Part shown: positions 24,598 to 47,028 of the stretch, in pieces
Position numbering within the stretch: the stretch's first letter is position 1
Layout: every line of letters begins with the position of its first letter
IMG/VR virus record: IMGVR_UViG_3300032144_000005
Strand: one strand, 5' to 3'
DNA from: a virus
Length of the DNA stretch: 64,000 bases
Position numbers and translations under genes: made by a program
The notes under the pieces: generated by a model
What the model saw: the letters and a program-made list of their open reading frames with translations, nothing else
What the model was told of the DNA's origin: nothing
The model's database searches: none

Positions 24598-26259
24598 TTA
24601 GCTCTCGTACACCGGGCAAGGACCGGCGCTGAGGATCGGGCACTCGGAGCTGAAGTTCTTGGCGATGAGGTGGCGCTCAGGGCGGTACACCGCAGCGGTC
24701 CAAGTGGTGGACTCCAGCTTGTACGTCTTCTCGTTCATCGCGATGACGCAGCGGTAGTCGCTCGGGATGACCTTCGGGTCAGGGAAGTTCCGGGTGACCG
24801 AGGCCGTCTTGGCGATGCCGATGTCGATGTCCGAGTAGTCGAGGAACCACATGTAGCGGTTCGCCGACTTGTGGGCATCGGGCGTGGCGAGGAGCAGGTC
24901 GTTGAAGAACGGGTCCGACACGACGTCCAGCTCGACACCGGCTTCGTCGAAGTCGTACGTGTTCACCGACAGGCCGGAGGTCTGGGAGAACTTCTCCGCC
25001 GGACCCTTGCCGATTTCCTGCGTGTAGGTGATGCCGTACTTGTCCTTGTAGTAGGCCGCGAAGATCTTCTTCACGCCGTTGGCGGTCGCGCGATCCGTCT
25101 GGGCCGGGATGACCTCGACGGCGTCCGACTGGCCGGACGTGGACTCGCGGTTGCGCTTGAGGTTGTACAGCGACTCGGAGAGCGAGTCGAAGTTCAACGG
25201 GGCGCCCGCGAAATCCGTGATGCGCGAGCACTTGGCGAGCTGGTACTCGATGCCCTCGGCGTTCGCCTTGTACTCCAGCACGCAGGTCGGGTCGTCGATG
25301 TCAGTGACCTCGGGCAGCTTGCCCGGCCCCTGCCAGTTGTTGACGTCCTGATACTCGTTGATCGGCTGGCCCTTGAAGATCGAGGTCCACCACTCGTCGT
25401 AGTAGATCTTGGTCTGCTGCACGAGCTGCTCCGAGTACGGCAGCATGTTGAAGACCTTGAAGAACTCGTTCATGTTCGGAGCCTGAATCGCCTTCAGGTA
25501 CTCCGAGGAAACAACGTGCGCCTTGCGGCTGGTCTGCAGCCAGAAGAAGATCAGGTTGTTCGGGTTGTTGATCGCGTTGTTATTGCACCACTGCTCGAAG
25601 TCCGAGATCGAGTTGGCGCCGGTCATGATCATGCCGCCCGTCGGCTGCCACGCTTCCTTCTGCGTGGGCGTGTAGCCCGCGAAGGTGGCGGAGGTGACGT
25701 TCGGCTCGACGACGACCGTGGCCTTCGGGTAGGTGACCGTGGAATCCACGGCGGAGATCACCTTGAAGGCGGAGTTCACCGCGACGCCCGTGCCGGAGAG
25801 GAACGTGACGAAGATGTACTTGCCCGCGATGAAGTAGCGGTCGATGCGGGGGAGCACGTTCTGCCACGGCGACGCCGTGTTCACGACTTCGAGATTCCAG
25901 CGGTAGCCGTTGTTGTCGGAGCCGGACTCGATGGTGAAGTAGCCGGAGTTGACCACCGTCTTCTGCCGGTACGGGACGTACGGCGCGATGATGGACTTGG
26001 GCTGGCCGATGTTGATCTGGGAGATCTTCTGCTTAAAATCGCGGAGGCGACCCTGCAGAATCATCGAAATGGGACGCTGGACAACGCCACGCATCCCGGC
26101 CTCGGCAGCCTGAGCATAGACCCGCTGAAGGTCTTCTTGGTCGCCGAGTGCCGCGAACTCGTCGGGGGTCATCGCGATGGCGGATGCACGGGTGAACGAG
26201 CAGCCGGAACCGTCACGAATGTTGACCACCTTCGGGAGACACTGGTTGAAATAAGCCAT
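24598..26259 (-). CDS. Major capsid protein
   Basis: 553 aa from MAYFNQCLPK. Follows portal and scaffold, has very strong codon bias and is flanked by terminators. No family match could be confirmed by eye. Confidence 0.7.
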   Translation of the reverse strand: MAYFNQCLPKVVNIRDGSGCSFTRASAIAMTPDEFAALGDQEDLQRVYAQAAEAGMRGVVQRPISMILQGRLRDFKQKISQINIGQPKSIIAPYVPYRQKTVVNSGYFTIESGSDNNGYRWNLEVVNTASPWQNVLPRIDRYFIAGKYIFVTFLSGTGVAVNSAFKVISAVDSTVTYPKATVVVEPNVTSATFAGYTPTQKEAWQPTGGMIMTGANSISDFEQWCNNNAINNPNNLIFFWLQTSRKAHVVSSEYLKAIQAPNMNEFFKVFNMLPYSEQLVQQTKIYYDEWWTSIFKGQPINEYQDVNNWQGPGKLPEVTDIDDPTCVLEYKANAEGIEYQLAKCSRITDFAGAPLNFDSLSESLYNLKRNRESTSGQSDAVEVIPAQTDRATANGVKKIFAAYYKDKYGITYTQEIGKGPAEKFSQTSGLSVNTYDFDEAGVELDVVSDPFFNDLLLATPDAHKSANRYMWFLDYSDIDIGIAKTASVTRNFPDPKVIPSDYRCVIAMNEKTYKLESTTWTAAVYRPERHLIAKNFSSECPILSAGPCPVYES

Positions 26260-26311
26260 GGGGATTAACCTTGTTGAGGTTGGCAGCAGTATGCCAGAGA
26301 CCATGGCTCCC

Positions 26312-26349
26312 AAAAAGAAAACACCCTCAACGATTTACCGTTGAGGGTG
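26312..26349 (-). terminator. Intrinsic terminator between scaffold and capsid genes
   Basis: 11-bp stem CACCCTCAACG/CGTTGAGGGTG followed on the minus strand by TTTTCTTTTT. Confidence 0.8.
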
Positions 26350-27867: not shown

Positions 27868-30351
27868 TTACATCGAGGGCACGCCCACTGGCTCCTGCAT
27901 GGCCTGCGGCGGAGGCGGCAGTCCGCCGCGTCCCATGCCGCCCTGCATCATCATCTGCATGAGCTGTTGGATAGTCTGCTTCAGTTCTCCGATGGTGCCG
28001 GAGTCCGCCTGCTGCTTCTGGGTGAGCTGCTGCACGGCCTGACCGATCTGCTGCATCGCGCCCTGCATCTCCTCGTTCGGAGCGCCCATCGGCTGCGAGC
28101 CGTCCGTGCCGGGCGGCAGGGCGATGCGCAGGTCGAAGCCCGCGCCCATGTTGCGGGACGCCTCGTTGATCAGCTCCACCACCTTCTCCTTCGGGATCAC
28201 GCTGGCCATCGGGCCGGAGCTGATGACCTGCAGGAGCTGGATCATGTTGTTCGCCGTGGCCTGCGAGGACGGGCGCTCAAGGCCGTCGCGTGTGGTGAAG
28301 AGGTACTCGGCGACGAGCTGCGTCTTGTTGCCCGTTACCGTGAAACGACCGCTGTCGAGTGGCTTGAACTCGGTGGTTGTCGGATCTCCGTCGGACTCGA
28401 CGATGACGAACCCGGCATCCGTGATGGTCTTCGCGGTGTAGCGGTCCTGCACGGACAGGTTGATCTCGTCCGAGCCGAAGGCCATCGACGCCTCGTACAG
28501 GATGCGCTTCTTCGCAGCCAGTCCCTCCTCGATGCCGATGGTGTGGAAGTCGCGGACGCCAAGGGTGGTGTTGTTCACCATGTTCGCCTCGGTCGCGGTG
28601 ATCTCGCGGGGCGCAACCTGACCGAGTTCCTGCGGGGAGAAGAACAGGAGGCGCTCGCAGAAGGCCAGAAGTTGAACGATGGTCCGCAGAATCTCGGCGG
28701 TCTTCTCGGCGGTCTGAACCTCGACAGCCCGCACGCGCTGCACGGTGCGCGGGTCCACGCCCATGTCCTTCAGGTTCTCGGCGGAGTATTTGACGATGAT
28801 GTTCGACGCCGCGTAGTAGTTGCGGTTGCGCATCGAGTCCTCGAAGGACTTGATGTCGCCCTCCTCCATGCCGTCGATGTTCAGCTCGTAGATCTTTGTC
28901 AGCCCTTGGAGCTGGATCTCCAGCATCTGCGAGAGGAGGTTGGAAACTTGATCCTGCGTGGGCAGCACGGCATGCGCGAACGAGGTCGAGTACATCCGAC
29001 TGTCATTCTCGTTGTAGCTGTACACCACGGCAGGATTGGAAGGCATCGGTTCCGCGTACATGATGGTGCGCGTCCCGCCCACCATGAATCGCAGCCACAC
29101 GTCGGCGTCGTACTTGCAGATCCCGTACTTCTTCGGGTTCAGCTTCATGAAGACCTCGGCCTTCGTGCACGACACGTCGTCGCTTTGCTGCGCCCAGTAC
29201 CCGACGTTCGCCAGCCGGTCGTTGCCCATCGAGTAGGCGTTCCCGAGATTGTCCTTGGTCGGGAAGACGATGGCGTCCGGGTAGTAGATGCGGAAGTACG
29301 CATCGTTCGAGGCAAGGAACTCGTAGGCTGCCGGGTTCAGCTCAATCGCATCGCGGTTCCAGTAGTCGGTATTGGTGCGGATTTCGCGCAGCCGAACGAT
29401 GTCCCAGTACCCGACGTACTCCGGCCCGCAGTTGTTGTTCAGCTTGGAGAGGGGCTTCGAGATGTCCCAGAAGGTGCGGCTCGGGTGCGGCGCGGTGAAC
29501 TCGACACCCTCGCGGGCGATCCGGTCCTCGACCACGTAGTCCGTCTCCTCCGGCCCGATCCCTGTCGCGTCGTCCTTGGGCTTGGCCACGTAGGCTGGCT
29601 CCATGTCGCGGGTCCATGAGCTGCGACAGAACTCGATCTGGTGGGCGTAGCACGAGGAGTCGCGGACGGACTGGACGATGTCGTGCTTGTACCCGAACGC
29701 CTCACTCATCTTCTCGACGTACTGGGTCACCAAGTCGGCGCGGAACTTCGAGGTCTGACTGGTGCCCGCCGGGTCGTAGCGCAGGAAGGGGAAGCGGGTG
29801 GCTATCGGTGTCGCCACACTGGCGACGCGGCGACTGACCATCGAGTGCGTGATGTTGTACGACACCTCGAAGAAGCGCGGCCAGTTCACCTTGAACGGCC
29901 TGCCATCCTTGCTCTCGATGATGCGGCCCCGCAATTCCGGCGAGAGCTGGTCGAGCTGCTTGGCGCAGGTGTCGAGGTTGATTAGACCTTGGCCGAGCAT
30001 GACCAGCGGGAAGGTGGTCTTGTTGTACGGCGTCGAATCCATCGCGATGTCAACCGGCGCGTACAGGCGGAACGAATCGAAGCTGCGTTGCCATCCTTCC
30101 GTGAGCCGGGCCTCGATCAATCCTTCGAGATAGCACCGCAGCTCGTAGTCGGTCGGATTCTCCGGCAACCGGAAGACCTCAGAGGTGGGCTCGACCCACT
30201 GCATGCTGTACTTGTCGCCCGATTTCAGGAACGCGCTCATCTTGACGCGCGAGGGCGCCTGATCCTTGGTCGGTGGCTCAGCGGTGGCGATTGCCTTGAG
30301 ACGCTCCACCGTTAGTCCGAGCGATGACGCAATATCCGGGTCGAAGGCCAT
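27868..30351 (-). CDS. Portal protein
   Basis: 827 aa, helical, with Q/M/P-rich C-terminal tail. Downstream of terminase and upstream of scaffold/capsid. Confidence 0.7.
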   Translation of the reverse strand: MAFDPDIASSLGLTVERLKAIATAEPPTKDQAPSRVKMSAFLKSGDKYSMQWVEPTSEVFRLPENPTDYELRCYLEGLIEARLTEGWQRSFDSFRLYAPVDIAMDSTPYNKTTFPLVMLGQGLINLDTCAKQLDQLSPELRGRIIESKDGRPFKVNWPRFFEVSYNITHSMVSRRVASVATPIATRFPFLRYDPAGTSQTSKFRADLVTQYVEKMSEAFGYKHDIVQSVRDSSCYAHQIEFCRSSWTRDMEPAYVAKPKDDATGIGPEETDYVVEDRIAREGVEFTAPHPSRTFWDISKPLSKLNNNCGPEYVGYWDIVRLREIRTNTDYWNRDAIELNPAAYEFLASNDAYFRIYYPDAIVFPTKDNLGNAYSMGNDRLANVGYWAQQSDDVSCTKAEVFMKLNPKKYGICKYDADVWLRFMVGGTRTIMYAEPMPSNPAVVYSYNENDSRMYSTSFAHAVLPTQDQVSNLLSQMLEIQLQGLTKIYELNIDGMEEGDIKSFEDSMRNRNYYAASNIIVKYSAENLKDMGVDPRTVQRVRAVEVQTAEKTAEILRTIVQLLAFCERLLFFSPQELGQVAPREITATEANMVNNTTLGVRDFHTIGIEEGLAAKKRILYEASMAFGSDEINLSVQDRYTAKTITDAGFVIVESDGDPTTTEFKPLDSGRFTVTGNKTQLVAEYLFTTRDGLERPSSQATANNMIQLLQVISSGPMASVIPKEKVVELINEASRNMGAGFDLRIALPPGTDGSQPMGAPNEEMQGAMQQIGQAVQQLTQKQQADSGTIGELKQTIQQLMQMMMQGGMGRGGLPPPPQAMQEPVGVPSM

Positions 30352-36338: not shown

Positions 36339-36592
36339 TTTGTTTTTGGTTTTCTCCGAAGGAGAATTGTTGGGATCTGGGCGAGTGCTTTGGCGAGCAT
36401 GTCCCGCATCCATTCCACCTCGCGCTTTGTATCGCAGATCGGGTTGAACGGATTCAGATCGAAGTATTGATGGGCGACCTTGAGTACCGCCCGGTGTCTA
36501 TCGCCGATGTCTCCGATGCGTTCGCGCTGGGTGAACAGGCGACGGCACTTACGCTCAAGCGGAGTGAGCTTAACTCTCTGATAGTCTTTCAT
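36320..36592 (-). CDS. Hypothetical protein
   Basis: MKDYQRVKL start overlaps the upstream TGA. Confidence 0.55.
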   Translation of the reverse strand: MKDYQRVKLTPLERKCRRLFTQRERIGDIGDRHRAVLKVAHQYFDLNPFNPICDTKREVEWMRDMLAKALAQIPTILLRRKPKTKCKTSN

Positions 36593-37056
36593 CAGAAGTT
36601 CCCCTCCGCGACTTGGTAGCAGATGATCCCGTTCTTGCGCCACATGTCGACGACCCGCTTGCGGTCCTCGAAGGCGGCGACGATCTGGCGGCGGGCGAGC
36701 GGGTCGAGTTCGTCGAGCCACTCCTGCTTGACGACGACGTCCTCGCGGTGGTCTCCGTCCTTGCGCATGCGCAGGCGGCAGCGGTCGACGATGTTCTGCG
36801 GGATGCAACTGTACAGCCAGTCGCGCGTCTGCGGCAGCACCTTGTCACCGCGCCCGGTCCAGATCAGGCAGGTGGCGCCAGATTCGTGCAGGCTGGTGAG
36901 CGTGTCGATGGTTCCCCAGATCGGCTTGTCGTGGACGCACTGTTCGTAGAACAGGTCCCAGTCCTTGCGCCCGTTTTGGATGAGATGAAGACGATGCGTG
37001 GCGTCAGCCAGCGTGCCGTCGAGGTCGAAGATATAGATGCGTTCAAGTACACTCAT
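36592..37056 (-). CDS. HAD-family polynucleotide 3'-phosphatase-like protein (PseT C-terminal-like)
   Basis: IFDLDGTLAD, WTGR, MR..GDHRED..VK and FEDR..VV.MWR..G..C.QV motifs. Confidence 0.88.
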   Translation of the reverse strand: MSVLERIYIFDLDGTLADATHRLHLIQNGRKDWDLFYEQCVHDKPIWGTIDTLTSLHESGATCLIWTGRGDKVLPQTRDWLYSCIPQNIVDRCRLRMRKDGDHREDVVVKQEWLDELDPLARRQIVAAFEDRKRVVDMWRKNGIICYQVAEGNF

Positions 37057-37334
37057 GGTTGTTCCTCCTCGTCGATGATCTCTGGGTTGATGAGCGATAC
37101 CGTGACGAGTAGCTGGTAGCGCTTGTTGCCGTAATAGACGTGGTCCATGCCGACGTGCTTGAGGTACTCCATGATATGGACCCGGAGGTCATACTCGGAT
37201 TCCTTCTTGTCCTCGCTGCGGTATTTGCCGCAGCGATAGAGGCGGCAGGGACGCACCTTGTAGTTGCGCTTGGGCTCTTCCGCCGGGGCGGGAGCGGTTG
37301 GCTGTTCGGGAGCGGGGTTCTCGGTGGTGCTCAT
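37053..37334 (-). CDS. Hypothetical protein
   Basis: Overlapping start/stop with both neighbours. Confidence 0.6.
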   Translation of the reverse strand: MSTTENPAPEQPTAPAPAEEPKRNYKVRPCRLYRCGKYRSEDKKESEYDLRVHIMEYLKHVGMDHVYYGNKRYQLLVTVSLINPEIIDEEEQP

Positions 37335-38311
37335 TCAGTCATCCGTGCTTCCACGGCCTCCATTTTCTCGAAGCTCACCGGGCGTTGGTCCTCAGCCGCC
37401 ATGAAGATCTGCGGCTCGTAGAAGGTCTTCGGCATGCGACCGCCATAGACCTCACGCACCACGGGCTCGATGCGCTTGGCCGTCGCCTCGCGCTGCCACT
37501 TCAGGCCCTCCGTCGTGATCTTCAGGATCTTCAGCGGATCGCCGCGCAGCTTGCAGCACAGGGCGTGGCAGGTCTTGTAGTGCAGCGCGTCCTTGGAGTC
37601 ACGACGACCGCCGATCTGGAGCTGCTCATTCAGGTAGAAGTGCAGCGCCCGCATCGGGTCGCGCTCCGTGAAGCCGACCGCCTCGCGCAGCGACGTGACC
37701 ATGAGGTCGGTCATGCCGGGGTTGATGAGGCGGCACAGGAACAACGACGACACCACCGGGCGCTGCGCCAGCTTGCGCAGCTTCTTCTTGTCCTCGGTGG
37801 CGGCGATCAACTCGGGCGTGAACGCATCGAATATCACGCGCACCTGCCACGCGGAGATGGGATCGGTGTGGCTGAAGCCGTAGCGGAGGAGCGACGTAAT
37901 GACCGAGGTGGTCGTGGTCGGGTCCTTCAGCTCCGGGTGATTGACCGCCATGATGTCGCCCTGCGTGCGGGTGGCGCCCTGACCGATCACCTCGAACTCG
38001 TCCTTCTCGCAGCCGAACCACACGGTCATCTGCACCGTGACGCCCGAGTTGACGACAGCCCACAGCCGGTGCTGACCTTCGATCAGCGTCTCCTTGTGGT
38101 GAACCCCTGCCGTGTCGATGAACGGCTTCGAGAAGGCGATGGGCTCGGCGGTCAGCCGCCACTCACCAGCCTTCATCGCCTTGACATACTTCTCCACCAG
38201 CAGGTCGCGGAGCGGTCGGTTGTGCGTGTTCGCGTTCAGCCACTTCTCGGCAACCGCCGGAGTGACGTCCATGATTTTGACCTTTCGGCCACCTTCGAGT
38301 TTGGTACTCAT
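37331..38311 (-). CDS. ParB/Srx-fold (DGQHR-like) protein
   Basis: VTP..AEKWL..NTHNR.L..V..Y..AM.AGEW.L..EPIAF..LIEGQHRL.AVV.SG. Confidence 0.8.
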   Translation of the reverse strand: MSTKLEGGRKVKIMDVTPAVAEKWLNANTHNRPLRDLLVEKYVKAMKAGEWRLTAEPIAFSKPFIDTAGVHHKETLIEGQHRLWAVVNSGVTVQMTVWFGCEKDEFEVIGQGATRTQGDIMAVNHPELKDPTTTTSVITSLLRYGFSHTDPISAWQVRVIFDAFTPELIAATEDKKKLRKLAQRPVVSSLFLCRLINPGMTDLMVTSLREAVGFTERDPMRALHFYLNEQLQIGGRRDSKDALHYKTCHALCCKLRGDPLKILKITTEGLKWQREATAKRIEPVVREVYGGRMPKTFYEPQIFMAAEDQRPVSFEKMEAVEARMTE

Positions 38312-38323
38312 TTCGTTTTTTGT

Positions 38324-39391
38324 TTATGGTTTGGGTTCATTGCCCAGCTCCAGATAGTGGCGCTGGGTTGTAGCTGGGGTCGTATGCCCCAGTAATTCTT
38401 GGGAGCTGCGGATCGCGCGCTCCTTCATCATCTCTTCGAGCTGGTCATAGGTGCGCTTGTAGTTGTGCTGGCTCGCGGTCTTGCGCATGCTGCGCATCGT
38501 TCCGACGCTGATCCCGGCCTTGGCCCTGATCTCGCGGAAGGTGATGCTGACGATGCTGCGACTGTAGCGTTTCCACTCGGGAAATAGGTAGCGCTCACCG
38601 GGCTGGAGTGGGGCCATCGCCTCATAGAGGATGGCTCGCATCTCCGGCGTGATCTCGAATGACAATTCGCGTTTCGTCTTTCCGGTGGAAATGCGAATGT
38701 CCTTCTCGTGGATGCACGACCGCTCCATCCGACTGAGGTCACTCAGGCGCAGGCCCGTTTGATAGGAGAAGAGGATCAGGTAGCGCCAGAACAGGGCGTA
38801 GGATTTCGATGCCGCGATGATCTTCTGCACCTCCTCGACGGAGTAGTGAGCCGTCTTCACTGGCACGAGCTGGGCCTGAGTCATGCCATCGCGCTTCACA
38901 TTCACATCGAGCGATGGGTCGATCAGGATCGAGCGCTTGGCATGGTGGTATTTGAAGAACGACCGATAGTATTTCAGTTTCCGAATCTTCGTGGACACGG
39001 CGAGTCCATCCATCGCATTGATCGCGACGTCGATGTGGCATGCCTTGGTGTCACTCACACGGCTGAGCCGGTTCGCCGTGGCGAAACTCTGCATCTCGTC
39101 GCAGGTGGCGGAAACAGTTCGCTCCGATACACCGCGTGCGGTTGCTGCGTTCATCCACTCGTAGATCGCATCCTTGAATAGCACCTCGCGAAGTGCGCCC
39201 AGCTTGACGATGGCATCGAGCGCCACGGGTCCGGCCAGTGCAGCGTATTCCTTTTGCTGGAGCCCTGCGGCCTCCGCAATTTTCTCCGCCGACTTCATGT
39301 CGGTGGCGCCACGGAGCGGGACCTTAGCTCTGCGTCCGCTCTCCGTCTGCAGGAGAGCGTAGTACACTCCCCGGATTTGTTTTATTTCCAT
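38324..39391 (-). CDS. int: Tyrosine recombinase/integrase
   Basis: TGLRLSDL (R), TGKTK (K), MRSMRKT (HxxR equivalent with H>R), LLGH and RHY (catalytic Y). Confidence 0.85.
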   Translation of the reverse strand: MEIKQIRGVYYALLQTESGRRAKVPLRGATDMKSAEKIAEAAGLQQKEYAALAGPVALDAIVKLGALREVLFKDAIYEWMNAATARGVSERTVSATCDEMQSFATANRLSRVSDTKACHIDVAINAMDGLAVSTKIRKLKYYRSFFKYHHAKRSILIDPSLDVNVKRDGMTQAQLVPVKTAHYSVEEVQKIIAASKSYALFWRYLILFSYQTGLRLSDLSRMERSCIHEKDIRISTGKTKRELSFEITPEMRAILYEAMAPLQPGERYLFPEWKRYSRSIVSITFREIRAKAGISVGTMRSMRKTASQHNYKRTYDQLEEMMKERAIRSSQELLGHTTPATTQRHYLELGNEPKP

Positions 39392-39638
39392 ACATTTTTG
39401 GTCTCAGAAGTTTGCGTTTAATTCTCTCTGCTGCTCTCGACTTGATAATGACAACGCGAGCGCGGATCGCCCGCTCCAGCTCGGAGACGTCGTCGTGAGC
39501 TTTCTGTCTTTCTACATCGAGCCGGTCCTTCCGCTTCTTGATCCGCTGCTTGAGCTGAATGATTATGCCATCGGAGGCGGACATCTCTTCGATCAGCCGC
39601 TCGTATTCATCCACCAGTTTCTCCGGCTGCTCACTCAT
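39324..39638 (-). CDS. Coiled-coil hypothetical protein
   Basis: Helical basic ORF overlapping both neighbours. Confidence 0.55.
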   Translation of the reverse strand: MSEQPEKLVDEYERLIEEMSASDGIIIQLKQRIKKRKDRLDVERQKAHDDVSELERAIRARVVIIKSRAAERIKRKLLRPKMYGNKTNPGSVLRSPADGERTQS

Positions 39639-39999
39639 GGTGCAGTCCCCTCCAGTAGGCGATCATGGGCTTGAACTGTGAGTCCCACAGGTCGTGCTTG
39701 CGCAGGTAGAGGAAGCCGCCCGACTTCATCATCTCGGTGTTGTACTTCACGGAGAGGCGATCATCGAAGTCGATGCCGCATCCCTTGAGGTAGGCGAACA
39801 TCACGTCGACACGGATCGGCTTCCAGTCCAGCGACCACGCGCAGAACTTCACGTCGCTGAGGGCGAGGCCACCATCACGCGCAATGTCCACGTCGGTCTT
39901 CGCTGTCACGTTGTTGCCCCCGTGCTGGTAGCGGGCCAGCAGGCGGCAGGCGATGGGCGGGAACCGCTCAGTCTTCTTTTGGAACGTCAGCAGTTTCAC
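39631..39999 (-). CDS. Hypothetical protein, possible HTH
   Basis: TDVDIARDGGLALSDVK segment; GTG start. Confidence 0.55.
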   Translation of the reverse strand: MKLLTFQKKTERFPPIACRLLARYQHGGNNVTAKTDVDIARDGGLALSDVKFCAWSLDWKPIRVDVMFAYLKGCGIDFDDRLSVKYNTEMMKSGGFLYLRKHDLWDSQFKPMIAYWRGLHHE

Positions 40000-40333
40000 G
40001 TTTCAGGCTTTTCTTGAGGTTGGCGATGGCGTCGAACTTGATCAGGAGCGCGGCCTTGCAGAGGGCCAGCGCGGGTGAGGCAGTGACCACCATCAGCAGG
40101 TTCTCGTCACCCGCCCAGTAGGGACGGCCCGCCTTGTAGCGGCTGTCGCTTGGGTGCATCTGGCCGACGCTGATCGGCATCAGGGTCACGATGTTGATGG
40201 CGTGCTCGATGTCGGTGGAGTAGGGCGGGATTCGCCCCTTCTCCTGACCGAAGAGCTGTTCATGGACGAGCGTGTCCAGCTCCTTACCGGCTGGCATGGC
40301 GACGACTCTTTCGCGGGGTGGTAGTGGTGTCAT
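39968..40333 (-). CDS. Phage ABA-sandwich domain protein
   Basis: AGKELDTLVHE..PPYSTDIEHA..V..TASPALALCKAAL matches the family pattern. Confidence 0.7.
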   Translation of the reverse strand: MTPLPPRERVVAMPAGKELDTLVHEQLFGQEKGRIPPYSTDIEHAINIVTLMPISVGQMHPSDSRYKAGRPYWAGDENLLMVVTASPALALCKAALLIKFDAIANLKKSLKRETADVPKED

Positions 40334-40351
40334 ATGGTATGATGGTTCTTA

Positions 40352-40376
40352 ACCCACGGGTGGTTAGCCCGTGGGT
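40352..40376. other. Intergenic hairpin without U-tract
   Basis: ACCCACGGG-TGGTTAG-CCCGTGGGT, 9-bp perfect stem. Confidence 0.7.
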
Positions 40377-40403
40377 CAAGACCATTCACAGAACTACCGT
40401 TCG

Positions 40404-40775
40404 TCAGTTCTCGTCGTATATCATCCGCGCCTCAGCCAACACGCGCTCGGTGTTGTAGTGGTCGGGCAGGCTCTCCTCGGTCATCGACGACACGAGATAA
40501 ACCCCCTTCCCCTTCCTCGTTAGGACCATGTAGAGCGTGTGCTCCGGGTAGCGGGCAGCCTTGGTTCCAAAGCAGAGCGCGGTGAACGTATGCGACTTCA
40601 ACTTCTGGAAGAAGTCGACGTTCGCATAGTGCTCCTCGAACTTGGCAATGGATTCCTCGATGCGCTGCCGGTACAGATCGCTCTCCACGTCCGTCCTTGG
40701 CCTCCTGTACAGCTTCTTGTGGTAGGCGTTGATCTCACTCAACGCCGTAGCTGTTAGCTCCACCTTCGTTTTCAT
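40404..40775 (-). CDS. Hypothetical protein
   Basis: AGGAGG 4 nt before ATG, a rare SD in this genome; overlaps the JAB gene end. Confidence 0.65.
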   Translation of the reverse strand: MKTKVELTATALSEINAYHKKLYRRPRTDVESDLYRQRIEESIAKFEEHYANVDFFQKLKSHTFTALCFGTKAARYPEHTLYMVLTRKGKGVYLVSSMTEESLPDHYNTERVLAEARMIYDEN

Positions 40776-42012
40776 ATGCCTCCTGTATTGCCTGTTGGTT
40801 GGCGTGTCCCTTGAACACCTTCTGGGCGTCGTAGGCCGCGTTGATCTTGGCGACTGACTCGGTGGTGCACCACGTCCCTTCCTTGGTGGTGGTGTACCCG
40901 TGCTTGGCGAGGAACGTGGCCGCAGCGGTGAAGCTCTCGAACTCGATCCATTGCCACAGGTACTTCAGGTCGAAGTCGTAGCCGCAGATGCCTTCGCTCG
41001 GGTGGATCACCGGCTCGCTGCGAGCGGTGATGTTGTCGAGGGTCCACTGCTCGTCGGCAGCGATCTCTAGCTGTCCTGCAACGTCCCCTGCAGGACCTTG
41101 CGTGCCTCCCCCTTGCTGATTCGCATGGCCTTGCGCAGCGTGGAAACTGCCCGGCGGAAGCTCGTGGTCCCAGCGCGCACCTCCTTGGCCAGCAAGCCCG
41201 CCGCCAGCATGCAGCCGATGGTTGCTCGGGGCATAGACGGTTCGCGGGAACTGCTCCCACTCCTCTCCGCCCTGCCGTGGCCATGTCGTCGGTGTGTATG
41301 TTGGCTGCTGAAATCGGATGAGGTTCTCCGACCATCTGGCCGGGAACCCCACCTCGTTGCTGACGGGCGCCTTCAGCAGGGCCATCAAGATTTCATTGTG
41401 GGTGGATACGGGCAGCATCGTCGCGAGCGCACTCGGAATCTCGAACCAGTCGGAGGCCACCACGTTCTCGAAGAAGTGTTGGATGCCGGGACGGATGACG
41501 TTACCGGCGCTGTCCAGCTCGCCGGGGAACTTCATCGACACGCGGCTGTGCAGGTCGAGCTTCGCCTGACCGAGGTGACCGACCGTCATGTGCAGGCCGA
41601 CGATGGTCTCCTCGTTGCTCTTGTCCGTGCCGGACTGGAAGGCGCCCGCCGAACAGTGGTGGTGCACGGTGCCCATGTACAGCCACGGGTCGCCGAAGAT
41701 GGCGAGGTCGATGGCCATGTGGGCGTGGTCGGGCAGCTCACGGGTGGTCATGCCCGTCCCGTATTGCTGCGGGAAGGCATGCGGCATCCACTCGCGGGTG
41801 ACCGGGTTGTAGTACAGGCGCACCTGCACCTCGTGTTCCTTGTGGGCAAGGAAGAACGCGATGATGGTGTGCCATGTGGTGACGGGGATCTTGGCCCCGC
41901 GCCAACGGACGCCGGGCACTCCTTCCTTCGCTTCGACAAAGGGCGAGAAGCCCTCGAATAGGTCGCTCTGGAATGGCTTCCAGATCTTCCCTGAGTTGAT
42001 GATATATGTCAT
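40735..42012 (-). CDS. JAB/MPN metalloprotease (prokaryotic deubiquitinase-like) with C-terminal extension
   Basis: Upstream Glu (HEVQ), GTVHHHC (HxH), AFQSGTD..E (S-x2-D) and GLHMTVG. Confidence 0.85.
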   Translation of the reverse strand: MTYIINSGKIWKPFQSDLFEGFSPFVEAKEGVPGVRWRGAKIPVTTWHTIIAFFLAHKEHEVQVRLYYNPVTREWMPHAFPQQYGTGMTTRELPDHAHMAIDLAIFGDPWLYMGTVHHHCSAGAFQSGTDKSNEETIVGLHMTVGHLGQAKLDLHSRVSMKFPGELDSAGNVIRPGIQHFFENVVASDWFEIPSALATMLPVSTHNEILMALLKAPVSNEVGFPARWSENLIRFQQPTYTPTTWPRQGGEEWEQFPRTVYAPSNHRLHAGGGLAGQGGARWDHELPPGSFHAAQGHANQQGGGTQGPAGDVAGQLEIAADEQWTLDNITARSEPVIHPSEGICGYDFDLKYLWQWIEFESFTAAATFLAKHGYTTTKEGTWCTTESVAKINAAYDAQKVFKGHANQQAIQEAYENEGGANSYGVE

Positions 42013-42030
42013 GGGATTGTTGGTTGGGGG

Positions 42031-43500
42031 TTAGAGAACCTCGATGCGTTGGATGTGGGTGCCCGTGCACTCGCTGTCGGTCACGTCGCTGTCGCGCAAC
42101 TCACTATCCATCTCGCTGAAGTAATCCATCTTGTCGTTGTCTCGCAGCCACTGCAGGACAGCTTCGGTGCCCTCCTCGTAGATGCTGCGCGGGATGTCGA
42201 ACTCGCCCTCCTCGAACACGCGGTGGTATTCGGTAACGAACTTGGTGACGTCCTTCTTGATCTTGATGGTGACCTCGACCGTGTCTTCGTCGCTGTCGGT
42301 GCCGGATTCCTGCTCCGGCAGCAGCTCGATGATGCGCAGGTGGTGCACACCGATGGCCGCGTTGATCAGGTCCTCGCTCAGCACCTTCTCGCGCCTCGGC
42401 GCCAACTGGCCGGGATTGGCCATCAAGTGCGCCATCACCTTCTCGGTGGTGTCGCACTCGACGGGGAGCTGGACGCCCGTGATCTGGAAGCACCGGCCAC
42501 GGCAGAACGTGGTGGCCGGATACTGGCGGATGATGTCAACCATCTGCTCACCGAGCCAGTCATGCAGCATCTGCTCTGTGATCTCGGGCGGTGCGTCCGG
42601 CGCGTTCAGAATCTCCTGCCACTCGCGCGGGCACTCGATCAGGCAGCTCTTGGCGATCAGCATGGGGATGCTGTCATCCCGTGTGCCCAAGTAATAGCCG
42701 GGGCTACTCACCTCGACCTTGACCGGCTGCCTGCTGCCGAGCGCCGTGAGGACAGGCAGCATCCACTCCTGCATGGCGTGCAGCTCCTCCGGCACCTCGA
42801 CGTAGTGGCAATAGCGGAGCTGCAGCCAGTAGTCGGACGACCCGTTGTGGGTGACGTGGATGGCGGCGTGCTGGTTGGCATCGTCGTTCACCCGCATGTC
42901 GATCACCGAGAACTCAAGGTAGCCGTTGCTGCGCAGGCGCTGTTCGAGGTGCTCGGGCAGGTCGCCGTTGTCCTCCTCGTGGAGCGCGATTACCTTGCCG
43001 ACGAGCGACGCCGCTTGGACGGCTTCGATCACGCACTCGTGGTCGAGCAGGTTCGGCTCGGCGTCAGCGTCGGGGATGATGTCCCACGGATTCACCCGGT
43101 CGAACTGGATGCGGGTGTCGAGGATCTCCGCCGTGACGTAGATCTCGTTCCGGTCTTCCGTGGTGTTGTTCACCCCGTCGAAGATGATGCGCACCAGTGC
43201 CTCGCCATCGAGGTTGTCGTACGCCTCCTCGTACTCGCCGAGATATTCCTCGGAGAAGCCAAGGTTCTTGACCCTGACCCTGCCGTCGTGGAACGGGTTG
43301 CGGCACAGTGAGAGGTGCTCACGGGCCACCTGATAGAAGTCCTCGTCGCCCTCGCCATAGCGGAGGATGACTTGGCCGTTGATGTCGACGTACGGTGAGT
43401 ACCACACGTCGGTCAGGGGACCGTTCTCACCGCTGTACTGGTGAAGAAAGTCCGGTTGGATTCGGGCGAATAGAAACCCGATGCGGGTTGGCTTATTCAT
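42031..43500 (-). CDS. Acidic 489-aa hypothetical protein inside the Ubl operon
   Basis: Strong codon bias; between E1 and JAB genes; no recognised motif. Confidence 0.75.
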   Translation of the reverse strand: MNKPTRIGFLFARIQPDFLHQYSGENGPLTDVWYSPYVDINGQVILRYGEGDEDFYQVAREHLSLCRNPFHDGRVRVKNLGFSEEYLGEYEEAYDNLDGEALVRIIFDGVNNTTEDRNEIYVTAEILDTRIQFDRVNPWDIIPDADAEPNLLDHECVIEAVQAASLVGKVIALHEEDNGDLPEHLEQRLRSNGYLEFSVIDMRVNDDANQHAAIHVTHNGSSDYWLQLRYCHYVEVPEELHAMQEWMLPVLTALGSRQPVKVEVSSPGYYLGTRDDSIPMLIAKSCLIECPREWQEILNAPDAPPEITEQMLHDWLGEQMVDIIRQYPATTFCRGRCFQITGVQLPVECDTTEKVMAHLMANPGQLAPRREKVLSEDLINAAIGVHHLRIIELLPEQESGTDSDEDTVEVTIKIKKDVTKFVTEYHRVFEEGEFDIPRSIYEEGTEAVLQWLRDNDKMDYFSEMDSELRDSDVTDSECTGTHIQRIEVL

Positions 43501-44230
43501 TACTGGGGTCCTTTTTCTTGAGGGTTGTGATGCGACTGAAGTTCGAGGCGTGACGAATCGGCGAGTAATCGAGCGCCTCCTGCTCGATGTCCGATGCCAT
43601 CTGGTAGTGATACCACATGAGATGAAGTCCGTAGGTGGCGGCGCACAGGTTCGCGATGGCGAGCTGCGGCGTCTGCTCCTGCGCCTGCCCCGTGCACCCC
43701 GCCTGTGCGGCGAAGGGATCGTCCTCCTTGTTGGTGAGGATCTCGGGGAACATGACGCGCGGGTCGAGCTTGGTGCCCTTCCATTGCGGCGTGTAGAACT
43801 GGGCCTCGGCGTCGGTGTAGCCGTTGCCCGTCATGATGACGTCGCAGCCCTTGCGGTCGGCGGCGTCGAGGATGCGCACGCGACCCGGATGGTTGTCAAC
43901 GCAGGCGAACACCAGCGCGCCCGCCTTCAACCACGGCTCGTCGCCGCTGAAGAAGCTGGTGATCGCACTGAAGCGGCCCTTGTAGTAGTCGTCGCTCGCA
44001 TCGAAGAGGGCGATGGACTTGTACTGCCCGAGGTTGGACTCACTGAAGAGCTGCCGGTCCATGTTCTTTTCTTCGAGCGTGTCGCCGTCGACCAAGACGA
44101 TCTCGGGAGAACGGCTCGGGTTGCGGTGGTTGCGAACGGAGCGGAGGAGCGGCGGAATGAGATAGCTGCCGACCCCACCGCAGCCGACGATGACGATCTG
44201 GTCGGGCCAAGGTTTGAGTTCTGATTTCAT
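43493..44230 (-). CDS. E1-like (ThiF/MoeB family) Ubl-activating enzyme
   Basis: IVIVGCGGVGS, VDGDTLEEKNMDRQLF, K, FACVDN, R, TGN and candidate catalytic Cys in AGCTG..QLAIAN. Start reassigned to MKSELKPW. Confidence 0.92.
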   Translation of the reverse strand: MKSELKPWPDQIVIVGCGGVGSYLIPPLLRSVRNHRNPSRSPEIVLVDGDTLEEKNMDRQLFSESNLGQYKSIALFDASDDYYKGRFSAITSFFSGDEPWLKAGALVFACVDNHPGRVRILDAADRKGCDVIMTGNGYTDAEAQFYTPQWKGTKLDPRVMFPEILTNKEDDPFAAQAGCTGQAQEQTPQLAIANLCAATYGLHLMWYHYQMASDIEQEALDYSPIRHASNFSRITTLKKKDPSNE

Positions 44231-44481
44231 GATTTGATGAGGAGCTGGAAGAGCCGTTGGGTTTTGGCTCGGTTGAAGATTTCGTTGTGGATGGCGACGA
44301 ACTCGGCGGCCTTGGTGGCGGCCTCCCGATACTTGGTGGGCGACAGGAGGTACGCCATCGTCGATGGATTGAGCGCCATCTCCTCGATGGTGGAGCCGAT
44401 CTTGCCTTGCGTGACCAAGTCGACTGGCACCGGGTAGGTGCGGAGCTGGTCGCTCAACAGGGTGTGGAGGAGCTTGCTCAT
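44227..44481 (-). CDS. 84-aa hypothetical protein between E2 and E1
   Basis: Translationally coupled by overlaps on both sides. Confidence 0.7.
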   Translation of the reverse strand: MSKLLHTLLSDQLRTYPVPVDLVTQGKIGSTIEEMALNPSTMAYLLSPTKYREAATKAAEFVAIHNEIFNRAKTQRLFQLLIKS

Positions 44482-45191
44482 AGCATGGCCACCCAGTTGA
44501 AGGACTCACCCGAGATGACCGGGCTGTAGTTGTGCCACTCCTGCCGGGGCGGGAGCGGCTGTCCGTTCATGTCGAAGCGCATGAACTCGGCGAGGTACGA
44601 CCGCCGCTCCTTGCCGCTCAGGTCGGTGTTCCAGATCGAGGAGCTGAAGTGAACAAGCGCCTCCCGCAGGAACATGACCGAGTTGAAGTAGGGGCTGCGG
44701 TCCTTCTCGTCCTTGAAGTTGCCCATGCAGATCTCCGCGTGGTCGTAGATGTTCGGCATGGGCAGACGATGGATCGTGGTGCGATCCGTCTGCTTGCGCA
44801 GGGCCACGAGGTAGCACTTCATCTGGTGCGCCACGAAGAACAGGCGGCAGTCCTTGGGGACCGGCCAGTCGTTGGCGTACTCGATGGCGTCGAGCGACTC
44901 GAACCACGGCACGAGGCACAGTTCCTTGCCGGTGCCGCGCGCCATGTAGTAGGTGCGCACCCGGAGATACGGCAGCTCGACCGCCATCTTCATCTCCTTG
45001 CCCTGAAGGCAGAGATGCACGGGCAGGCCGTCGATGGTGGTGAAGCTCGGGAACGTGTGCGGCACCTGCTCCGCCATCATGGAGACGATGTCCGAGCGCG
45101 GGCCGAGCGGGTCCACTTGGAGGCTCAGCCGATGGAAGTTGCCCTGCTGATCGAGCAGGATCAACGGGGTCTTTTGATTGAATGGAATCAT
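44478..45191 (-). CDS. Prokaryotic E2-like protein (family D/PRTRC protein B-like)
   Basis: RLPMPNIYDHAEICMG (PN..G/A.IC.G with Cys) followed by F.SSIWNTDL; operon context. Confidence 0.75.
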   Translation of the reverse strand: MIPFNQKTPLILLDQQGNFHRLSLQVDPLGPRSDIVSMMAEQVPHTFPSFTTIDGLPVHLCLQGKEMKMAVELPYLRVRTYYMARGTGKELCLVPWFESLDAIEYANDWPVPKDCRLFFVAHQMKCYLVALRKQTDRTTIHRLPMPNIYDHAEICMGNFKDEKDRSPYFNSVMFLREALVHFSSSIWNTDLSGKERRSYLAEFMRFDMNGQPLPPRQEWHNYSPVISGESFNWVAML

Positions 45192-45206
45192 GATTTATGA
45201 GGGGTG

Positions 45207-45243
45207 AAAAATAAGGCGGGCGCCCCCTTTCGAGGGCGCCCGC
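45207..45243 (-). terminator. Intrinsic terminator between Ubl and E2 genes
   Basis: GCGGGCGCCC-TCGAAAGG-GGGCGCCCGC followed by CTTATTTTT. Confidence 0.85.
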
Positions 45244-45275
45244 ACAGTGCACTGATACGATCAGCTCGTTGCTGA

Positions 45276-45734
45276 TTACGACGCCTTGGACGCCTTGGTG
45301 TTGGCCTGCGTCTCGATGGAGATCACCATGCCATGACGAATCACGACATCATCGGTGATCTGCGCACCGTCGATGCGGCACACGGAGTTGCGACCGAAGC
45401 CCAGCACCTGCTGATACGAGACATTGGTGAGAATGTCGCGGATCGTGGTGCCCTCCGGCAGCTCACGGGTGATGCTGTTGCCCGGCCCGTGGCTCAGCGT
45501 GACGGAGACGTTCGCCGCCTTTCGGTTGGCGACCGTCTCGACATCCACGACGTCACCCGGCTGGATAACATACGTCGACGGCTGGACCTGACCACGGACA
45601 CGCGCCTGAACATTGTCGCCAATGCCGAGCGCCATCTTGATCGAGGTGTTGGACAGAAGGTCGGCGATGGTACGTCCAGCCCAGTTCTGGGTGATGGAGT
45701 TGCCGTAGCCGAACTTGATGGTTGTGGAGGACAT
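45276..45734 (-). CDS. Tandem di-ubiquitin-like (beta-grasp) protein
   Basis: Two ~74-aa units alignable by eye (GNSIT, G.TI.D.L.N, LG.G.N, VI..G.V..ET.AN.KA); directly upstream of E2/E1/JAB. Confidence 0.82.
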   Translation of the reverse strand: MSSTTIKFGYGNSITQNWAGRTIADLLSNTSIKMALGIGDNVQARVRGQVQPSTYVIQPGDVVDVETVANRKAANVSVTLSHGPGNSITRELPEGTTIRDILTNVSYQQVLGFGRNSVCRIDGAQITDDVVIRHGMVISIETQANTKASKAS

Positions 45735-45748
45735 GTTGTATCTTTTCT

Positions 45749-46405
45749 TTAACTATCGTTGTTTGTTTTGTGCGTAGTTTCCTGATGACCCTGTTGCACA
45801 TTCAGGGACGGTGTTACCCGCTCAGAAAGTAGGTGCGCTGTGTTCTTGCGAACACGGTGGCGCAAAGTGTTTCGGTTGATCCCGAGCAAGCGGGCTGCTT
45901 CAGAGCAGCACACCCGCTTGCCGTCGACAATAACCCACACCGTTCTCGTGGTGTTGGCGTTCTGCTTGTCTCTCGGAATCCAGATGCAGTTTTCCTTGGT
46001 GTAGTCTCCAGTGACCTCTTGCCTTTCTAGCGACATTCCGGGCGGACATTCGCCCATGTCCTCAAGGAAGTTCTCGAAGCTCATCCATCTGGCGCAAACC
46101 TTGATTCGAGAATAGGTCTTGTACTTCGGGTTCTTGCTGTCGGGCCTGCACCTTTGGATCATGGCGTCCCAAACATGATAGGTCTTGGAATAGCTATGGC
46201 CGTGGGTGGTCTTCGCCTTTCTCGACAGATCAATCTTCAGGCAGCCGCACGACTTAGAGTCGCCGTATATCAGGTTGAAGGCGTCGCACGCTTTCTCTTT
46301 GCCGCAGTCACATCGGCAGAGGTACTTGATCCTTCGCGCTCCGCCTCTCGACACCTGCCTGACAACAAGAAGCCTTCCGAATCTTTCACCAGTTAGATCT
46401 TTCAT
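45749..46405 (-). mobile_element. Free-standing HNH homing endonuclease (Zn-ribbon + HNH + HTH type)
   Basis: DLTGERFGRL, CRCDCG, SCGC, W.AMIQRC, IKVCARW.SFENFLEDMG, SLER..GDY..ENC.W; markedly lower GC than flanks. Confidence 0.88.
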
Positions 46406-46407
46406 GG

Positions 46408-46635
46408 TCAGTTCCTGTGTCTCCCGTAGTAGTGCTGAACCTTGCGCTGAAAGTCCTCAGCCTGCTCACGGGAAGAGAACAGGTGCTGGGTGTACGGAAT
46501 GTCACCAAGCAGGCCGGGACCGTAGAGCATCCCGAGGAACACGACTCCCTTGGAGCCGTGCCCTAGGATGTACCTCAAGTCATCCCCATCCAGAGTGATC
46601 GCGACAACTTCGCCTCGTTCATTCTTTTCGAGCAT
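46408..46635 (-). CDS. Hypothetical protein
   Basis: Packed ORF with C/A-rich leader. Confidence 0.6.
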   Translation of the reverse strand: MLEKNERGEVVAITLDGDDLRYILGHGSKGVVFLGMLYGPGLLGDIPYTQHLFSSREQAEDFQRKVQHYYGRHRN

Positions 46636-46671
46636 GACTGGTTTTGTTTTGGGGTTGGGGTGAAGGCGAGA

Positions 46672-47028
46672 TCAGTCCTCCCGTCCGGGCAGCGTGGTGC
46701 TGTCCGCCTGCCGCTGGAGCTTCTCGTCGATCTCACGCTCCGCATCGACGCGCTGCATGTGGCGCTCGATGATTTCCATGACGACCTTCTCGATCTCGAC
46801 GAGACGCGCGGGCGTCAGCTTCGAGGGATGGTCGGCATAGACAGCGAGGCTGACGGTGCCACGAAAGTCATTGATGCTGTCAATGAATGGCAGGTCCATC
46901 AGCTCCATGTGGCACTGGTCGTCGTCGTGCCCGTACTGGGGCAGCTCGAAGATCTCGCCGTCGGGGCCGGTGATGTTGAGGTCGATGGTGGTGTAGGCGG
47001 GGGTGAACTTCAGATGTGGCTGTGTCAT
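46672..47028 (-). CDS. Hypothetical protein
   Basis: ATGA overlap with upstream gene (MTQPHLKF). Confidence 0.6.
   Translation of the reverse strand: MTQPHLKFTPAYTTIDLNITGPDGEIFELPQYGHDDDQCHMELMDLPFIDSINDFRGTVSLAVYADHPSKLTPARLVEIEKVVMEIIERHMQRVDAEREIDEKLQRQADSTTLPGRED

Follow-up and report, generated by a model that had tools for sequence, protein, structure and literature searches.

In a 64,000-nucleotide stretch of virus DNA (IMG/VR record IMGVR_UViG_3300032144_000005; this whole stretch is called the window below), six genes running in the same direction along the minus strand (45734-40735) probably encode a functional phage pathway that attaches a ubiquitin-like modifier (Ubl) to other proteins and removes it again. 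We put the probability of this reading, i.e. of a Ubl conjugation and deconjugation cascade of PRTRC/6d stock that is transcribed together with early or replication genes, at roughly 0.7. PRTRC denotes the ParB-Related, ThiF-Related Cassette (TIGR03736, TIGR03737), which we take to be the same as operon type 6d (Iyer, Burroughs and Aravind 2006). In the order of transcription, the cassette consists of a tandem Ubl (45276-45734, 152 aa), an E2 of UBC fold (44478-45191, 237 aa), a small variable protein (44227-44481, 84 aa), a ThiF-type E1 (43493-44230, 245 aa, with the ATG of MKSELK taken as its start), an acidic accessory protein (42031-43500, 489 aa) and a JAMM/JAB metallopeptidase (40735-42012, 425 aa). 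A preliminary description of this DNA had proposed a co-oriented, mostly overlap-coupled operon of just these six open reading frames (ORFs), and their coordinates, strand and overlaps were all confirmed. The E2 and small genes, as well as the small gene and the E1 gene, are linked by ATGA stop/start overlaps, the E1 and 489-aa ORFs overlap by 8 nt, and gaps of 18 and 84 nt separate the 489-aa ORF from the JAB gene and the Ubl gene from the E2 gene, respectively. A longer E1 ORF with a GTG start (to 44509) was also considered and set aside, as the starts of the homologues give it no support.

The same arrangement recurs in many other phage contigs. A profile scan of IMG/VR, built from the JAB alignment, returned 104 relatives, of which 80 loci were retrieved (the single E2 sequence, used as an IMG/VR query for loci, gave no match), and 82 loci were examined by local iterative searches with hidden Markov models (HMMs) for each part of the cassette. 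Ubl was detected in 66 of them, E2 in 72, E1 in 76 and JAB in 80, and the loci without one of these parts are contigs that are cut short. The order Ubl-E2-small-E1-(accessory)-JAB is kept in every sufficiently long locus and recurs in about 80 IMG/VR phage contigs; the survey of gene neighbourhoods called for at the outset returned one and the same order. Because residues are conserved and the gene order is fixed across about 80 independent loci, a chance origin of the cassette is excluded. Some variation is seen between E1 and JAB: about half of the loci have one or two added genes in this interval, whereas elsewhere the E1 and JAB genes directly overlap. The latter loci largely coincide with a subgroup, taken to be marine, whose small protein bears CGRKRGAILRYIK.

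At the head of the cassette, the tandem Ubl provides the clearest structural evidence. Its AlphaFold model, based on a 29-sequence alignment (mean predicted local distance difference test (pLDDT) 90.3), consists of two beta-grasp units, and Foldseek aligns it in the PDB to linear di-ubiquitin and ISG15 at E values of 3e-9 to 1e-7 and, when FAT10 is included, up to 1e-6, which bears out the beta-grasp tandem predicted upstream of the enzymes. Unit 1 (residues 1-73) ends in ...ETVANRKA and unit 2 (residues 75-148) in ...ETQANTKA, the latter being followed by a four-residue tail, SKAS. Over about 60 distinct Ubls, the C-terminal motif reads [E/Q]-x-x-[A/S]-[N/Q/S/H]-[S/T/E]-K-[A/G]; its Lys (Lys147) is invariant, and the residue after it is Ala in most of these proteins, while about five have Gly and three have Asn or Gln. 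Thus, both the fold and an exposed, conserved C-terminus, by which a beta-grasp modifier is recognized, are present. Many of the Ubl genes end right after Lys-Ala, others continue for 1-35 unrelated residues, and such variable tails behind Lys-Ala or Lys-Gly are the pattern expected of an activated C-terminus served by a tail-trimming peptidase.

Tandem Ubls were found six times, including that of the window, and in all of them the motif stands at the end of both units, with linkers of 1-3 residues. With units that are 44% identical to each other, the window's Ubl resembles a short poly-Ubl precursor that would give rise to two distinct monomers. Its SKAS tail (45276-45290) stems from a 9-bp tandem duplication, in which CCAAGGCGT occurs twice, and a near-identical strain contig (run X6) is without the extra 9 bp, so that the length of the tail is polymorphic; this indel fits an unconstrained, removable tail. 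Low-depth contigs of related strains yielded 11 synonymous and 11 non-synonymous variants in the Ubl gene. Among the single-domain Ubls, the invariant penultimate Lys is the sole Lys in 17 of 44, which makes Lys-linked chains unlikely.

The E1 is a single adenylation domain (Pfam ThiF, PF00899, 49 bits). A profile of 30 homologues, run against the PDB, retrieves the active adenylation domains of UBA6, UBA5, UBA3 and SAE2 as well as ThiF and MccB at about 1e-13, and also BubCD (3e-9) and Cap2. Invariant positions comprise G16/G18/G19 (GxGG), D48/D50 (DGD), N56 and R59 (NxDRQ), K71 and D112-N113. Cys179 is kept almost without exception in the alignment of 30 sequences and is present in 71 of 71 sequences of a local one. 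The protein thus has what distinguishes the E1/ThiF family, i.e. a Rossmann GxGxxG motif, the Arg and Lys that contact ATP, the Asp for Mg and a Cys past the adenylation core. When its complex with Ubl unit 2 was predicted, the pair scored 0.38 against 0.00 for the best control, the runs agreed in at least 93% of the contacts and the partner pLDDT was at least 88; the mark applied to such predictions is attained by 58 of 80 solved complexes and by 2 of 110 mismatched pairs.

For the E2, several lines of evidence converge. Pfam Prok-E2_D matches residues 117-164 only, with 27.4 bits against a cut-off of 25. All 63 aligned sequences have Asn147 and Cys155, which lie eight residues apart, as in the HPN...C motif of classical E2s. 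In a comparison of the AlphaFold model (32 sequences, mean pLDDT 89.7) with 48,161 chains by VIA-align, about 20 of the 22 top rows are E2/UEV folds, BubB included, at Z scores of 3.9-4.9. The closest clusters of the AlphaFold Database (AFDB) are an unnamed one (2e-12), 'UBC core domain' (6e-5) and 'PRTRC system protein B' (2.9e-4). At the level of sequence profiles, neither the E2 nor the JAB alignment gave a significant match among PDB sequences, the best for E2 being a UBC chain at E 1.1. A UBC-like fold and a Cys about eight residues after a conserved Asn, the marks of an E2/UBC protein, are thus both found. The preliminary description had named the lack of an E2 or beta-grasp fold as the outcome that would speak against it; both folds were recovered, clearly in the case of the Ubl and adequately in that of the E2, where several lines, each weak when taken singly, agree. 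Low-depth strain contigs show 11 synonymous and 2 non-synonymous variants in the E2 gene, and this excess points to purifying selection on E2 among strains.

The conserved E2 also bears on whether the cassette conjugates anything at all. An E1, a Ubl and a JAB could instead belong to a sulfur-carrier or other small-molecule route of the ThiS/ThiF or CysO/Mec+ type, in which the JAB would expose the C-terminus of the Ubl and a thiocarboxylate or other acyl intermediate would be made for a nucleotide, a cofactor or DNA, without conjugation. JAB-Ubl-E1 trios are indeed known from sulfur transfer (Iyer 2006, PMC1779556), and the present cassette adjoins genes of DNA metabolism; moreover, its E1 is single-domain and ThiF-like, and a weak ThiS match is the only one that the Ubl obtains in Pfam. 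However, an E2-fold protein with an invariant Asn-x7-Cys, found in 72 of the 82 loci, has no role in such pathways, no rhodanese, cysteine desulfurase or sulfurtransferase gene was detected in the cassette by Pfam and NCBIfam, and the Ubl ends in Lys-Ala rather than Gly-Gly and can be a tandem precursor. We regard a sulfur-carrier role as highly improbable, above all because of the conserved E2.

Between the Ubl stop and the E2 start lies a terminator-like hairpin (45206-45243, minus strand, found by a consensus scan) with a 12-bp stem of which 11 pairs are G-C, a tetraloop and then CTTATTTTTC. Of 62 distinct related loci, 42 likewise have a strong hairpin and a T-rich tail behind the Ubl gene, roughly fourfold the density on the rest of this strand, and in several more the hairpin is present but the T run is missing. 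The structure recurs while the sequences differ. It may act as an attenuating terminator or as a 3' stabilizer that keeps the level of Ubl high relative to that of the enzymes; with the Ubl gene placed first and the hairpin directly behind it, the Ubl would probably be made in excess over the enzymes.

The JAB, encoded by the last gene, has its catalytic domain at about residues 1-235, followed by a variable C-terminal half with Gly-rich stretches. E61, H117-x-H119, S127 and D130 are invariant in 30 sequences and constitute the JAMM motif E-x(n)-H-x-H-x7-S-x2-D, and 16 of 30 members of the family match Pfam Prok-JAB (PF14464) weakly (best E 1.2e-5). The stretch of about 45 residues ahead of the JAMM Glu includes an invariant Trp47, and Arg65 is nearly invariant. 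Taken together, the catalytic motifs, which had been described as intact-looking, are fully or almost fully conserved across alignments of 30-71 homologues, and the assignment of di-Ubl, E2, E1 and JAB next to two unassigned genes, in a phage setting, is supported by folds, families and loci alike. Gene decay was considered as well and rejected, since every catalytic residue is conserved. As a separate observation, the variable, Gly-rich C-terminal half is seen in the window's JAB (40735-41290) and in four relatives (P0044, P0048, P0064 and P0086), and many JAB proteins of the family end in aromatic-Gly tails such as ...EGGANSYGVE or ...YPGYGAGFGIGG, which may be a docking motif.

A conserved peptidase together with a Ubl that is probably abundant could also serve counter-defence, as the preliminary description had suggested, with the JAB stripping the conjugates of host Bil or CBASS (cyclic oligonucleotide-based antiphage signalling) systems or with Ubl decoys saturating the host machinery, and with the phage E1 and E2 in a secondary role. 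JABs do reverse conjugation in characterized Bil and CBASS systems. Yet E1 and E2 are as strictly conserved here as the JAB, which would be unexpected if stripping alone mattered, the Lys-Ala terminus is unlike that of Bil Ubls, which end in Gly, and no host system is known for this uncultured phage. The present data do not favour the stripping or decoy idea over plain conjugation, and we consider it very unlikely.

The two remaining genes had been called orphans, and neither protein has a match in Pfam, NCBIfam, PHROGs, PADLOC or the ESM Atlas or any similarity to PRTRC E/F. The two are unequal, however. The small gene is a near-constant component: an ORF of 67-370 aa (mostly 80-160 aa) occupies the E2-E1 interval in 61 loci, always in the same position, although the sequences are so divergent that most clusters fail to link. 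A subgroup of 29 shares the motif CGRKRGAILRYIK mentioned above. Within L031-L082, the subgroup whose E1 and JAB genes overlap, the small proteins of 29 loci show a strongly conserved basic motif, LRIL-KILAK-LPDCGRKRGAILRYIK, which is absent from that of the window. The 489-aa gene, in turn, is an optional accessory that is absent from about half of the loci. Its product is acidic (pI 4.5), and residues 309-478 belong to a domain family of about 190 aa (local HMM, E 3e-9) with the motif AP-x-[N/S]-P-x-x-R...P-x-P-D...T-F-E-x-I-x-x-W, which lies between E1 and JAB in 31 loci, at times in two tandem copies; the N-terminal 300 or so residues gave no family match. In one metagenomic JAB homologue of 666 aa (P0017), this domain appears to be fused to the N-terminus of the JAB, as judged by eye from an unscored alignment, and if the fusion holds, it would tie the domain functionally to the JAB. 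Our guess, from their fast change beside slowly evolving enzymes, is that the small and 489-aa proteins are specificity or regulatory factors.

The family is large and appears to be restricted to phages. The JAB protein has 120 word-indexed homologues, many of them on contigs of 50-73 kb, and HMMER finds 840 proteins at E<=1e-30 and 1,987 at E<=1e-10 among 1.84 billion representatives of 50%-identity clusters, the 840 clusters being a lower bound on the size of the family. By contrast, only 25 of 185,579 cellular species genomes have a match, and all 25 are contigs of metagenome-assembled genomes, mostly in Verrucomicrobiota bins. Using tblastn, no JAB was found in 50,697 GenBank phage records with three divergent queries or in 72,556 plasmids with one query, and blastn of the whole cassette against GenBank phages returned 48 bp of Ralstonia phage Darius as the sole match. 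The best tblastn match of the window's E1 among GenBank phage records is a human-faecal 'Bacteriophage sp.' scaffold (MT835919.1, L084), with 26% identity over 94% of the protein. In related phages, the cassette lies directly upstream of replication genes on the same strand, and its downstream neighbours include DNA polymerase A (39 loci), an AEP primase, UvrD and DEAD helicases, a DUF2800 nuclease and Pam3 gp33/gp34-like proteins.

This genomic setting is relevant to the idea of a phage-carried defence or superinfection exclusion of the Bil kind, in which the Ubl would be put on structural proteins of rival phages, in a lysogen or in the course of infection, and block their assembly. The characterized bacterial systems that combine Ubl, E1, E2 and JAB (Bil I/II) or use related chemistry (CBASS type II) serve defence (PMC11601596; 10.1101/2023.09.26.559546), and temperate phages often bear defence genes; in the window, a tyrosine integrase gene (38324-39391, minus strand) lies about 1.3 kb downstream of the cassette. 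However, integrases related to that of the window occur in only 5 of the 82 loci within the retrieved stretches, the family is nearly absent from cellular genomes, and a fixed, co-oriented site upstream of the replication module in about 80 divergent contigs (GC content of the loci 37-61%) resembles that of a core function of the infection cycle rather than of a moron. PADLOC gave no match for E2, JAB or Ubl and only a weak similarity of the E1 nucleotide-binding region to Cap2. A defence role of this kind therefore seems unlikely to us. In architecture, the Bil I/II systems (BilABCD) are similar in that they have separate genes for Ubl, E2, JAB and E1, a Ubl that can comprise two beta-grasp domains like ISG15, no E3 and a JAB that trims C-terminal extensions. 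Yet they are host-encoded, and their E1 is large, with an IAD-AAD-CYS architecture whose Cys domain is mobile, in contrast to the 245-aa single adenylation domain of the phage cassette, in which moreover both units of a tandem Ubl carry the C-terminal motif.

Of all known systems, PRTRC is the one to which we assign the present cassette as a variant. Type 6d operons have been described as consisting of a Ubl whose C-terminal Gly is conserved, an alpha-helical protein, an E2-like protein in which a Cys and a His downstream of it are conserved, an E1 and a JAB with an N-terminal Arg/Trp domain (PMC1779556). PRTRC cassettes are found on plasmids, integrative and conjugative elements and some phages, canonical ones being annotated in cultured phages such as Ralstonia phage Dina, and they share with the phage family a separate small Ubl, a Cys-bearing E2-like protein, a single-domain ThiF-like E1, a JAB, a fast-evolving extra protein and a location on mobile DNA. 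In hhalign comparisons, Dina PRTRC ThiF aligns to the E1 family over 188 columns, including the Cys motif (98.7%, E 4e-16), and Dina PRTRC_B aligns to the E2 family (89%, E 2e-6), although here the alignment is confined to the active-site motif PxxNvYxxGxICxG. E1 and E2 are clear, if distant, homologues of PRTRC ThiF and PRTRC B, the kinship of the E2 being confined to its active-site region and its fold.

The differences from PRTRC are nonetheless considerable. Although PRTRC_ThiF (TIGR03736) is the best NCBIfam match of the E1, it reaches 52.1 bits against a cut-off of 144.75, and PRTRC_B (TIGR03737) reaches 20.3 bits against 131.45 with the E2. The His that follows the E2 Cys in PRTRC/6d has no counterpart, as no column in 63 sequences is mainly His and Asn188, Asp190 and Leu191 are conserved instead, and most of the Ubls end in Ala rather than Gly. 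Dina PRTRC_C, for which hhalign gave no alignment with the Ubl family, has a beta-grasp domain ending in ...GRKG and then a tail of 63 residues, so that a Lys followed by a small residue is common to both. With Dina PRTRC_A, only the HxH..S..D region of the JAB aligned (17%). Dina has the gene order E-C-F-B-A-ThiF, as opposed to the Ubl-E2-small-E1-(accessory)-JAB seen here, homologues of PRTRC E/F are absent and linkage to ParB is not general, whereas tandem Ubls and the restriction to phages are features of the present family. We thus interpret the cassette as a phage-restricted variant of the 6d/PRTRC kind that falls outside PRTRC as delimited by its own models, and presumably it works as PRTRC works. 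In the literature accessible to our searches, neither a functional study of PRTRC/6d nor a paper on a phage Ubl cassette came up, and absence there is no proof. The earlier view of an undescribed system is right in part: the novelty lies in the branch, which is large, unannotated and confined to phages and has a gene order and accessory genes of its own and a Ubl ending in Ala, but its E1 and E2 have distant homologues in PRTRC ThiF and PRTRC B, and PRTRC was already annotated in Dina.

Other systems are more remote. CBASS type II (Cap2/Cap3, type 6B) shares E1 and E2 chemistry, a JAB and the weak similarity in E1 nucleotide binding; however, Cap2 is an E2-E1 fusion that conjugates a CD-NTase without any Ubl, whereas the phage cassette has separate genes and a dedicated Ubl, and scans with Pfam, NCBIfam and PADLOC found no CD-NTase among its genes. 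The Bub systems (type 6E/DUF6527) are approached by the E1 profile through BubCD and by the E2 model, which aligns to BubB with a Z score of 4.1. Yet Bub proteins are fused (Ubl-E2, JAB-E1 or E2-E1), have no catalytic Cys, form Ser/Tyr oxyesters and are accompanied by a DUF6527 serine protease, whereas the phage cassette keeps both Cys residues and has separate genes, and Pfam detects no DUF6527 in it. Eukaryotic polyubiquitin and ISG15, the best structural matches, likewise consist of head-to-tail beta-grasp units, each with an activation motif, and of an extra tail that needs a peptidase; the phage proteins differ in having Lys-Ala rather than Gly-Gly, units of only partial identity and enzymes that are prokaryotic and minimal. 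Lambda-type tail assembly, with the JAB/NlpC protein K and the Ubl-like protein I, was also considered and rejected, because the cassette lies in the early/replication region and has an E1 and an E2.

From the folds, the conservation of catalytic residues, the gene order, the distribution among phages and the homology to PRTRC described above, we infer chemical steps, cleavage sites, an excess of Ubl and potential targets. The JAB would cleave after the conserved Lys-Ala, removing SKAS and probably splitting the tandem into two different monomers, in the manner of polyubiquitin. E1 would then adenylate the C-terminal Ala and load the Ubl on its Cys179 as a thioester, from where it would be handed to Cys155 of E2. 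E2 would place it on target lysines, with the small and acidic accessory proteins maybe contributing specificity or regulation, and the JAB would also be able to undo the mark. Our best guess is that, during infection, the mark goes to proteins of the host or to early or replication proteins of the phage itself, and not to those of competing phages. Host proteins, modified in the course of takeover or anti-defence, can be named only tentatively, modification of the phage's own early or replication proteins is a rather doubtful proposition when taken by itself, and targeting of competing phages is unlikely. Equally tentative is the more general idea that a large phage lineage tags host or defence proteins early in infection with an Ala-ended modifier released from a poly-Ubl precursor, as a counterpart to the manipulation of ubiquitin by eukaryotic viruses.

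Several points weigh against a functional conjugation cascade of phage origin. Conjugation activity is predicted from sequence and models rather than from biochemistry, no target, E3 or substrate adaptor was identified for the cassette, and to our knowledge, no E1 of this kind is known to activate a C-terminal Ala. The complex prediction supports the pairing of E1 and Ubl weakly and, with E1-Ubl complexes having already been solved, its score may mirror likeness alone. Family and fold assignments have their own gaps: the Ubl has no significant Pfam match, its single hit being to ThiS at 21.8 bits against a cut-off of 22.5, the window's JAB has no Pfam match, and the E2 model finds nothing in the PDB with Foldseek at E<=0.001, while its VIA-align matches are weak when taken singly, with Z scores below 5. 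The phage nature of the contig (73,211 bp) is indicated by a limited set of markers, i.e. two PHROG structural matches (a tail fibre and a virion structural protein), the integrase, the gene layout and the IMG/VR relatives. Large genes of the window that are presumed to be structural or packaging genes (24598-26313 and 27868-30351, minus strand) have no tblastn match in the 50,697 GenBank phage records and no match in Pfam or PHROG, and the virus is very distant from cultured phages. Finally, no RNA runs matched the window DNA.

If the cassette is active, bacterial viruses own a protein-tagging pathway, and an E1/E2 cascade can use a C-terminal Ala. The remaining prokaryotic E1-E2-JAB classes that Iyer 2006 set out have been followed up (CBASS type II, Bil and Bub, and also an NCBIfam anti-phage model, '6A-MBL'), and those that are characterized serve the host against the phage. 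Here, the same type of machinery resides in a phage, at a fixed site beside replication genes, and at least 840 clusters of this family are missed by current annotation. A direct route to the targets is offered by the invariant penultimate Lys: after digestion with trypsin, modified lysines should retain one Ala (+71.04 Da).

As for the surroundings of the cassette, the minus strand carries nearly every likely gene between 57.7 kb and 4.4 kb of the window. Downstream of the integrase gene, a PNKP-type HAD phosphatase is encoded (36592-37056, minus strand), and an ORF at 37331-38311 (minus strand), which belongs to PHROG 5931 and has a GQHR motif, is possibly ParB/DGQHR-like; an assignment as ParB found no confirmation in Pfam or the PDB, and relatives of this protein occur in 6 of the 82 loci. 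A consensus scan of 39500-47000 found no sigma-70-like promoter, and no tRNA was found in the window. Directly upstream of the Ubl gene, a 218-aa protein (45749-46405, minus strand) combines Cys-rich N-terminal motifs (CRCDCG...SCGC) with a C-terminal Fis-type helix-turn-helix (Pfam HTH_8, E 7e-5). This protein, perhaps a regulator or a DNA binder akin to homing endonucleases, is not kept upstream of the cassette in other loci. The window DNA itself is present in soil and rhizosphere metagenomes of several studies.

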